Shown here one piece after another: positions 2,852 through 49,052 of a stretch of 64,000 bases of DNA. The position numbers and the translations under genes were made by a program. Source of the stretch: Isurus oxyrinchus (taxonomy: Eukaryota); NCBI GenBank assembly GCA_026770705.1, contig JANJGN010000026.1, forward strand, positions 31,248,001 through 31,312,000, given 5' to 3'. The notes beneath the pieces are model-generated. The model saw only the letters and a program-made list of their open reading frames with translations, was not told where the DNA came from and made no database searches. Numbering within the stretch: position 1 is the stretch's first letter; each line of letters starts with the position of its first letter.

Positions 2852-2865
2852 GCGCCCTCTGGTGG
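2852..2865 (-). promoter_or_regulatory. CTCF motif downstream of a V RSS
   Basis: CCACCAGAGGGCGC on the - strand, ~24 bp past the nonamer. Confidence 0.7.
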
Positions 2866-2928
2866 GCACTAACTGTACCTCTCAGTGAGGTTTCAGCACG
2901 GGATCGGCAATATCTCCGCAGCACTGTG

Positions 2929-3357
2929 AGCTCCAGGGCACAGAAATACACGGCGCTTTCGGAGAGAAGTTCCCCGGCGATATTTAAAGGAGACGCTATA
3001 TTTCCTTTGTGAAAATAACCAGAAAATCTGTCTGGTTAGCTTGGAAGCCTTTCTTCATTCCCCAAGCTTCAGTAAATGTCTCGCAGCTTCCCCGGGATAC
3101 TGGACATACCAGAACAGAGTTGTGACAGGGCCGGCTGGCGAGTAACTGCAGCCCAGTATTATGCTCTGTCCTTCCATTATCATTAATGCAGACGGATCCT
3201 GGGACATTGAATCTGTGCCATCCGACCCTGTAACACATATACAGAATGGTTCAAAGCCGGCGAGGAAATACAACCCCCGTAAACACAGTGACTATGTAGA
3301 CATAGACTTACCAGGCAGCAAGGCAATTATTGGGAGTAAGGGACATGGTGAGCTCAT
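2929..3357 (-). pseudogene. TCR alpha/delta-like V pseudogene (leader + V exon)
   Basis: Leader 3357-3312 (MSSPCPLLPIIALLP, GT donor); V exon 3227-2929 with LGCSYS, LFWYVQYPGE, DRFSG and ESAVYFCAL; frameshift and TAA near CDR2; RSS CACAGTG (2928-2922), 24-bp spacer, GCTGAAACC (2897-2889). Confidence 0.9.
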
Positions 3358-23746: not shown

Positions 23747-24090
23747 CTTTCGCAATCGACCCTCTGATGGACACTGCCTGAATCACACACACGCACACAC
23801 AACATTAGAAATCTACCCTCTGCTGGACACTGTCATTACCACATGCACACACAGACAGCCCTTGAGCAATCTACCCTCTGCTGGGCACTGTGATCATGAC
23901 AAACACGCACACCAACCCACACATCTTAAGCAATCTACCCTCTGCTGGACAATGTCATAATCACACACATACACAAACACATACACACACACACACACCT
24001 TTAACAATCTACCCTTTGCTGCGCAGTGTCATAATCACACACAGACAACTTTAGCAATCTACCCTCTGCTGAACACTGGCGGAATCATAC
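22600..24090 (+). repeat. ~1.5-kb segmental duplication (other copy ~41690-43230), ending in a CA/aatctaccctctgctggacactg minisatellite
   Basis: Colinear similarity, e.g. gaaatcacaagg..., ctttcaggaagaaatggcgaagattcaggttc. Confidence 0.85.
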
Positions 24091-46496: not shown

Positions 46497-47140
46497 GTGG
46501 GGAAGCATCTCGCTCCTCTCCTCATCTTTATATCTCTTCTCAGTAAGTATTCCCTTCCCAGTAAAACTCCATTCTCCTCCTGTCTGCTGTAACCCAGATG
46601 TTATTGTTGTTAAAATAATAGTGATGGCGGTGTTGGTGATTATGTTGATCAATAGGAGGCTGGCGCTGACTGTCTGTTACTATTATTTCTGTTTGAATGG
46701 AGCTACCAACACACAGTGGAACAACGGATTCCTAAAATAACGTCAAAAGCAGAAAGTAATGTCACAGTGACCTGCACCTAGAAAACAAGTGATTCAAGCC
46801 CAAATGTGTACTGGTACCGTCAGCGCCCCGGGAATCCTCCAATGTACATGTTTTGTCTTATTAGCCGGAATGTGCAAACGAACACCGACCTCAATGATTG
46901 CTTTCCTTCCACGTTTGATTAAAATAACAAGATTACCGAGCTAACAATCAACGGATCGTTAGCTCGGTAATCTTGTTATTTTTATCAAACGTGGAAGGAA
47001 ACCAATCATTGGGGTCGGTGTTCGTTTGCACATTCCGGCTAATAAGATGAAGATCCGTTGATCGTTAGCACGGTCATCTTGTTATTTTTATCAAATGTAC
47101 TGATCCCCGATACCTCCGTGCACTTCTGTACCATGGACCC
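46497..47140 (+). pseudogene. TCR V pseudogene with internal fold-back duplication
   Basis: Leader relic 46497-46542 (GTG start); exon with VTVTCT*KTSDSSPNVYWYRQRPG and DTSVHFCTMD; RSS CACACTG (47141), 24 bp, ACAAAAACC; CTCF motif 47205-47218. Confidence 0.88.
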
Positions 47141-47993
47141 CACACTGCTGCAGTGATATAGCGGGTTCTGTACAAAAACCCTCACTGGCAGTACCACCAT
47201 GTGTTCACCAGAGGGCGCGCACACACCGGTAATTCAGTTTCCACAGTGAGAGTACAGGGAGATTCTGAAAATTGCAACAAAACACAGGACTCAATAGCAG
47301 CAGCAGGTGAGGTCCACTTGCACAGTCATATTGGTTTGTGATTGCACGTTGTATTTTTATTAGATATGAGATTGAAAAATCGGTCTGCGCTTGCCTTATT
47401 TCCCCTTTTTGGTTTTCGACACCTTTCCCTTCTAAATGTTTCTTATCATTCGTGTCTTCAGTCTTTTCCGAAAACTGCATACATTTCCGTTTTCCCTCAC
47501 TAATATAAACGTTTAAAGCTTTTTCTACTATCTTATACATTAATTCAGAACCACTCCGAAACCTGTTGCTCATGTATGCGGTCCTGGTTTCAATCCGCAT
47601 CGCTGATGAAGATGACGCTTATTATTGAATAATTTACTAACTCTGACTCTGCTTTTGCGAGCCTGCTGGCCATCAATATGGAATGAAGATTAAGCTACAG
47701 TTCTTACAGAGAGGAATAGTTATATAATTTTCGATGCTGTGATTATTATTGAGTTCAGTTCCTTGTAGATAAATCCTACATGTGACAACGCTGCCTGCAG
47801 TAGCCCCACGCACAGCTTCCTTCTGCTGTTCTCGCTCTGACCTGCCTTGGCTGCCCTGTTTCATTGGAGAGATTGTTGCCGCTTTTCCCCTGTTTGACAT
47901 TGGTTGGATCAGGAGTCCAGTGGGGAGGAGACCTCTATTTCTACCCTGACAGAGGATTCGTGGTCAACAGAGTAACAGATGCAGGGGAGCATC

Positions 47994-48450
47994 ATGTGGG
48001 ACTATCTCAGACCATTCGTTATTATGTCACTTCTCAGTAAGTATATTTCCAGTACAAAGCAATTCTCCCCCTGGCTGCCGTATCGCAAGCATTATTTATG
48101 GCAAAATGCTTGTCCTGATGATGCAACGTTAAATATCGTCATTGTCTATGTCAGAATGGAGTCATGACGATTCAGTGGAGCAGTCGGTACCTGAAATGAC
48201 AGTTAAAGTGGAAGGGAATGACGTCATAAACTGCACCTTGAAAACAAGTGATCCTCGCCCAGTGTTACAGTCAGCAGCCCGGGTAGCCCCCACAGTTTGT
48301 GATTTACCTCTGTGGGGGGGATAGCAAAGCGAAGCCAAACTTTACAGACCAATTCTCTTCTACGTTTAGTAAAGCTGATAAAGCTACTGAGTTAACGACT
48401 AGCAATGCCCTGTTCTCCGACACCGCCATGTATTTCTGTGCCATGAGCCC
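47994..48450 (+). pseudogene. TCR V pseudogene, paralog of the 46497 segment
   Basis: Leader 47994-48036; exon from 48155 reads DDSVEQ...INCTLKTSD, frameshift/stop, PPQFVIY...DTAMYFCAMS; RSS CACAGTG (48451), 24 bp, ACAAAAACC; CTCF motif 48514-48527. Confidence 0.9.
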
Positions 48451-49052
48451 CACAGTGCTGCAGAGGTACAGCGGATACTGTACAAAAACCCACACTGGGA
48501 GTTCCGGTTAGAGTCACTAGAGGGCGCTGCCGCACCAATAAAACGAATGCACTAAATCAGCCACCACGTGAGATTCACAGGGATTTTTAAAAACTGAAAT
48601 GAAGCACAACACTGAACAAGAACAGGCGAGTTCCACTTGTAAAATTATTTCAAAAGCTCACATCTATAATAAAAATAAAATTTACAGATACACCTGTCGA
48701 ACCTGAACTGGCCTTTTGCCTTTTAATGTATTTTGCCTTTCCCTTGCCTTTCATGGCTTGTCTTCACTTTTACTCAGGACACTTCCCCCATCCTTGTTGC
48801 AGTCTTTAGTTTAATTATATAAAACCTTTGCTTCTGCTCAGAATATTAAGTCGGGACCGCTCAAACGAACAATACGAAATGAATTGTCACATCAGGTCAG
48901 TGCTGAAACACAGAATCTCTTGTAACCTGATGAACGGCGCCCGAAAATTTCTCAGAGCGCCCAAAAGAGGGCGTCCCGATCGCAATAATTCTAACTGCAC
49001 TAATGGTGGAAATGGGTGTTAAAGGAACGCAAGACAAACTAAAAACTTATGT

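Follow-up and report, generated by a model that had tools for sequence, protein, structure and literature searches.

Why do three broken V segments in one stretch of the Isurus oxyrinchus genome each pair an RSS of unusual spacer length with a CTCF-type motif immediately behind it? The window, i.e., the whole analysed stretch of 64,000 nucleotides, is part of a TCR alpha/delta array that also contains NAR-type cassettes. A sequence-only reading of this DNA had noticed that the V segments with heptamers at 47141 (+), 48451 (+) and 2928 (-) have a 24-nt spacer starting CTGC, and had proposed an RSS-CTCF module in which the motif might offset the long spacer. The elements concerned, which belong to two protein lineages (A and B) introduced below, are the following:

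46713..47140 (ends approximate), plus strand: lineage A TCR alpha/delta V exon, pseudogene, with 59% identity to an intact paralog by tblastn
47141..47180, plus strand: RSS of the 47141 copy, with heptamer 47141-47147, 24-nt spacer 47148-47171 and consensus nonamer 47172-47180
47188..47195, plus strand: possible CTCF upstream module of the 47141 copy, the core lying 1 base further off than in the laboratory sites of bioRxiv 2023.12.05.569896 (used in part)
47205..47218, plus strand: CTCF-type core motif of the 47141 copy, 24 nt past the nonamer, with 1 mismatch to consensus
48169..48450 (ends approximate), plus strand: lineage A TCR alpha/delta V exon, pseudogene with a frameshift near the conserved Trp and a stop
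48451..48490, plus strand: RSS of the 48451 copy, with consensus heptamer, 24-nt spacer and consensus nonamer
48514..48527, plus strand: CTCF-type core motif of the 48451 copy, 23 nt past the nonamer, with 1 mismatch
2929..3213 (ends approximate), minus strand: lineage B TCR alpha/delta V exon, pseudogene with a frameshift
2889..2928, minus strand: RSS of the 2928 copy, with consensus heptamer, 24-nt spacer and decayed nonamer (3 mismatches)
2852..2865, minus strand: CTCF-type core motif of the 2928 copy, 23 nt past the nonamer, a perfect match

The described layout holds in detail. All three spacers measure 24 nt and start CTGC, and placing the nonamer at 23 or 25 nt costs 3-6 mismatches. The motifs (47205-47218, 48514-48527 and 2865-2852) follow the nonamer at 23-24 nt on the same strand as the V, and the remaining conventional V RSSs in the window have a spacer of 23 and no motif at that position. 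All three copies are indeed pseudogenes, the one ending at 47141 being broken by two in-frame stops and an inverted insertion, the 48451 copy by its frameshift and stop, and the 2928 copy by its frameshift. They are not independent of each other, because they are members of one inherited family that is defined by a common tail: the last ~10 V codons, an RSS with a 24-bp spacer, a same-strand CTCF-type motif 23-25 bp behind the nonamer, and 100-200 bp of flank. A second CACAGTG is found at 47241-47247 and 2815-2809 (-), and many tail copies conserve it ~25-40 nt past the core; it was rejected as an RSS, having no good nonamer.

The combination of motif and 24-bp spacer is real, family-wide and far wider than the window. 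A family-blind search of the whole genome for V ends with a 24-bp spacer yielded 78 matches, 66 in the locus and 12 scattered elsewhere (control, 4), and all 66 strict 24-spacer V signals in the locus are of one type, with spacers starting CTGC or CTAC. The V-end pattern with a 23-bp spacer matched 148 times. A nonamer followed by the forward motif was found 53 times genome-wide, of which 45 in the locus (control, 0), and a nonamer followed by the motif in reverse orientation not once. The seven matches to a 23-bp RSS with the exact motif comprise five 23-bp members of the same family, one other V, which is a weaker match, and one unrelated sequence; a looser genome pattern gave mostly noise. 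In a catalogue of 247 V-RSSs, deliberately enriched for the tail family and lacking the window's 47141 copy, a same-strand CTCF-type motif (at most 2 mismatches) accompanies 93 of 113 tail-family Vs and 0 of 134 other Vs, an association that counts statistically as one origin and not as 93 events. Contig C26 alone supplies 76 of the catalogued family members, and the unplaced contigs may partly duplicate it. In 200 kb chosen without regard to family there are 16 Vs, and neither a 24-bp spacer nor the motif accompanies any of them.

Family members have the hallmarks of TCR alpha/delta V segments, namely a leader, an intron, a V exon with Cys-Trp-Cys and a 23-type RSS, with J-alpha and C-delta in the locus. 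A rough leader was found for 27 of the 39 members checked, and the nearest named relative returned by shallow word-index protein searches is annotated as TCR alpha-like. Many members appear intact: after removal of two frameshifted false calls, the family holds 38 open V exons, 33 with a 24-bp spacer (23 with the motif and 10 without), three with 23 bp and two with 22 bp, those five all carrying the motif. The intact relatives are therefore mostly neither 23-bp nor motif-free, 23 open V exons having both the 24-bp spacer and the motif.

The sequence properties of the motif make CTCF binding likely. Motif scores are counts of mismatches to the CTCF core consensus CCASYAGRKGGCRS, taken from the part of PMC6746451 used here, with a search pattern one position looser. 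Matches with at most 2 mismatches at offsets 14-26 occur at 104 of 20,000 random positions (0.5%), and against this background the 93 of 113 copies lend sequence support to the RSS-adjacent, same-strand CTCF-type module proposed for shark TCR alpha/delta Vs. Among 38 representatives of under 88% identity, the 13-column core ranks first of 257 windows downstream of the nonamer, and it still ranks first after dropping 3 representatives obtained via the motif search. Variation in the core falls mainly where CCASYAGRKGGCRS is degenerate (G17/C15, C26/T7, A32/G3), and three G positions never vary (36 of 36); at the first position, 25 of 38 representatives have T instead of the consensus C. Conservation is not better in the 12 intact representatives (0.81) than in the 26 broken ones (0.85), and in the intact set alone the core ranks only 27th of 257. 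Clustering at the 93% level gives a similar picture, the core being kept in 25 of 27 broken clusters and in 13 of 16 flagged open, two of the latter 16 resting partly or wholly on a frameshifted copy. Three intact lineages have lost or degraded the motif. The CTCF upstream module occurs at two spacings; no more than 9 of 33 family representatives have it within 1 mismatch.

The most interesting new point is the shared tail, which is common to two V lineages that are otherwise saturated. Lineages A and B, which together form the tail family, are ~35% identical as proteins. Their V bodies show a nucleotide identity of 0.45, within the range between A and unrelated families (0.41-0.46); intron identity is at background level. 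The 3' parts, by contrast, match at the values found within A, with identities of 0.82 in the last ~10 codons, 0.72 in the spacer and 0.65-0.67 in the flank to +40, beyond which A-B identity fades to ~0.5. A nearer sister family of B (body identity 0.73) has a 23-bp spacer, an unrelated flank and no such tail. We infer a transfer of this tail, from the last ~10 codons through RSS and motif to the flank, by recombination between A and B, the direction from B to A being more likely. The tail tree interleaves A and B, and no strongly supported branch forces more than one origin; such a tree formally also allows that the tail as a whole is under strong selection. At four-fold sites of the short coding tail, the A-B comparison (56/133) does not stand apart from that of A with the sister family (21/54).

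Two V pseudogenes of an unrelated 23-bp family (C26:35024264 and C26:40029012), which carry the tail's 3' flank from the degenerate core onward, indicate together with a switch in the 47141 copy that exchange of this sort happens in the locus. The switch is placed as follows:

47170..47192, no strand assigned: crossover interval between two paralogous blocks in the 47141 copy, the informative sites upstream being all of one paralog type and those downstream all of the other

This crossover may instead be an assembly join. Compared with a block at C26 34.88-34.92 Mb, the window resembles a ~26 kb deletion at the same interval. RAG cleavage was rejected as the cause of the crossover, the junction lying at the nonamer rather than at the heptamer.

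For other species, spacer length was read by frame from gene models crossing the RSS, a procedure calibrated on this genome that uses predicted peptides, not DNA. The Heterodontus francisci (horn shark) model P0003, at 66% to its best Isurus paralog, reads as a 24-bp spacer with the motif at the same offset. Models P0039 and P0065 read as 23 bp plus motif, the Leucoraja (skate) model P0006 as 23 bp with an end where the motif would begin, compatible with a motif start, and the Callorhinchus model P0056 as 23 bp with no readable motif, all four at the peptide level. Contigs from two other organisms align across the RSS at 80% or more. Several of these pieces span the spacer without a gap, the 12 matches listed out of 20 contain no spacer indel, and at the loose ends the flank continues into the motif. 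That outside relatives read as 23 bp plus motif makes the motif probably older than the extra spacer base. In Isurus itself, a 23-bp subgroup of lineage A is nested among 24-bp members, which points to a reversion that kept the motif. One presumed RNA run, from another organism, contained one leader-V contig spliced at a GT..AG joint, which ends mid-V and lacks the 3' end; four presumed RNA runs searched over the J-alpha array returned repeat-derived contigs only and no V-J junction.

We consider it reasonably probable that the window copies are broken members of a large V group inheriting one 3' tail, that the motif in this tail binds CTCF and stalls cohesin-extruded chromatin by the RSS, and that the extra spacer base is a later change that was likely tolerated. 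The motif would have arisen first, beside a 23-bp RSS in a B-like lineage; a one-base insertion would then have created the 24-bp spacer, and lineage A would have captured the tail via recombination within FR3. CTCF bound behind the RSS would stall extrusion and lengthen the contact of the RSS with the J-based recombination centre. The analogy for this last step is the mouse proximal VH segments, as treated in parts of PMC7930373, PMC11153149 and bioRxiv 2020.01.01.891473, and by this analogy the motif probably helps adjoining V segments get chosen.

The sequence-only reading had suggested that the motif might offset a suboptimal spacer; in this view, the CTCF site would be kept since it rescues a weak 24-bp RSS. 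The motif is indeed present in 82 of 99 24-bp members, only 2 of 134 other Vs read 24, and the literature offers a rationale: a mouse RSS-adjacent CBE lifts the use of a weak RSS far above the level of the RSS alone (part of PMC11153149), and off-length spacers lower recombination to some degree (part of PMC7753069). However, 24-bp spacer and motif are co-inherited, so their association amounts to a single origin, and the two come apart within the family, 11 of 12 members with 22/23-bp spacers retaining the motif and the 10 open 24-bp exons mentioned above doing without it. Tabulated over the catalogue of this genome and the gene models elsewhere, spacer length against motif speaks against compensation, the outside relatives having the motif beside 23 bp. 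The same part of PMC7753069, a review, reports mixed effects of a one-base spacer change and cites only a moderate one. The 11 NAR-type V copies observed, moreover, all have a 22-bp spacer and lack a CTCF motif, and most have open frames (window 21608 (-); C242 438-548 kb; C26:35173763). Compensation is thus left unsupported and is not needed for any observation; we regard it as unlikely. Harder still to credit is a RAG cut displaced inward by two bases, to the second CAC of the common heptamer CACACTG, which would give an effective 22-bp spacer. CACACTG, with its second CAC at +2, occurs in 65 of 111 members, but the shifted heptamer has 3 mismatches, 24-bp spacers are also seen with the heptamers CACAGTG and CACAATG, and 23-bp families have CACACTG too; we give this proposal hardly any weight.

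The V segments on C26 lie at 23.1-40.3 Mb in islands ~1 Mb apart, with recent block duplications in both orientations. Tail-family members spread from 23.8 to 40.2 Mb (~16 Mb) and are found on unplaced contigs as well. The J-delta, C-delta and J-alpha region, with 27 J-like segments, is on the unplaced contig C242, where up to the contig end no exon matched the C-alpha search pattern. Motif-bearing sites on C26 number 37 on the plus and 22 on the minus strand; not all of them face the J/C end, and either placement of the unplaced J contig leaves many facing away. Nor is the motif restricted to J-proximal Vs: on C242, none of the Vs that occupy the 170 kb ahead of its first J has it. A perfect CTCF-type motif in reverse orientation (C242:656329 (-)) lies between C-delta and the first J-alpha, the place expected of a loop partner. 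A forward CTCF-type motif is found just before the first J-alpha (C242:665262 (+)), and a tandem array of 11 weaker reverse motifs lies downstream (C242:765129-776576 (-)). Weaker CTCF-like 14-mers are repeated upstream of NAR-type Vs (window 23826-23948 (-), 40199 (-) and 43207 (-); C242 426-551 kb), apparently as part of a short repeat. Six V segments at C242:554210-581361 have their best nonamer at 25 bp, and these nonamers are mostly poor.

Sites that face both ways could be CTCF-bound and serve general locus folding, as pause sites spread by V duplication, rather than the adjoining V. The retention of the core at least as well beside broken genes agrees with such a function, as does the count of exact cores in ~1.24 Mb of family-enriched locus DNA, where 58 of 132 belong to the tail. 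On the other hand, 74 of 93 copies keep a distance of 23-25 nt between core and nonamer, as a local role predicts, and the broken lineages were intact genes for part of their history; a role confined to folding seems to us improbable. We judge it very unlikely that the motif is a neutral hitchhiker, i.e., a GC-rich, CTCF-site-like stretch carried by duplication. One origin, a non-consensus first base and repeated loss in intact genes would all suit a passenger, but its core would hardly be top-ranked in conservation, with substitutions that respect the consensus and the same register in distant gene models. We accordingly keep to the reading of a CTCF-binding tail that acts on the adjoining V. 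Because the segments face both ways, capture is more likely to be Igk-like, with a pause followed by short-range diffusion, than to follow strict one-way Igh scanning.

A bolder version of this reading, possible but in our view doubtful, would make RSS and CTCF tail a transferable usage-control module that predates the shark-skate split, with a 24-bp spacer used by shark RAG in dozens of working genes and with moves between unrelated V families by crossovers in or around the RSS. If true, a V family could gain a new recombination frequency with its binding surface unchanged. The shark layout as a whole would give RSS-adjacent CTCF control of V(D)J choice, known from mammalian IgH, a history reaching back to cartilaginous-fish TCR. 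The shared tail suggests that recombination signals can switch family independently of the V domain. Within one family, intact genes combine spacers of 22, 23 or 24 bp with presence or absence of the motif and so provide a natural 2x2 experiment.

Among papers accessible without subscription, our search returned none that deals with a 24-bp spacer or an RSS-adjacent CTCF site in the TCR of sharks. The terms 'CTCF' and 'spacer' are absent from the portions of PMC12227049, PMC10322711 and PMC5931798 covered by text look-up, and the covered portion of PMC2193808 has none of the terms looked up. A motif search of the nurse shark TCR-alpha clones in the accessible part of PMC5931798 supplement 3, gave no lineage-A-like row, an absence that carries no weight because the clones derive from family-specific primers. 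The examined part of the bamboo shark table (PMC10322711 supplement 15) lists coordinates without spacer lengths.

The RSS-CBEs of mouse and human IGHV (7183, Q52, VH81X-CBE), as described in portions of PMC6746451, PMC7930373 and PMC11153149, resemble the shark layout in several respects: the motif shares the strand of the V and follows the nonamer at a short, fixed distance, its occurrence is confined to certain V families and can be predicted from V phylogeny, and its core is better kept than the DNA between RSS and motif. According to the same portions, the distance from nonamer to motif is 17-19 nt in mouse IGHV and 19 or 48 nt in human IGHV, compared with 23-25 nt in the shark. The shark sites accompany TCR alpha/delta Vs in both orientations over ~16 Mb, whereas IGHV CBEs are in IgH, one-way and D-proximal; shark pseudogenes keep the motif, whereas mouse pseudogenes are usually without a site; and the pairing of the putative CTCF site with a 24-bp spacer is unlike IGHV RSS-CBEs. 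Mouse Tcra/Tcrd, as far as the excerpted PMC5859386 describes it, is the same type of locus and has CTCF sites in both orientations, including a V-facing TEA site just upstream of the J-alpha array that the reverse motif at C242:656329 resembles. Most of its V sites lie upstream of V promoters or between genes, whereas those of the shark follow the RSS. The diffusion-based joining of Igk, outlined in the part of PMC11153149 used here, is similar in that Vs lie in both orientations and CTCF sites act as pause points; it differs in that CBEs are absent within 20 bp of any Vk RSS and in its dependence on strong RSSs, those of the shark being off-length. The shark layout is a variant of the mammalian RSS-CBE layout, and one that fails three of its defining features.
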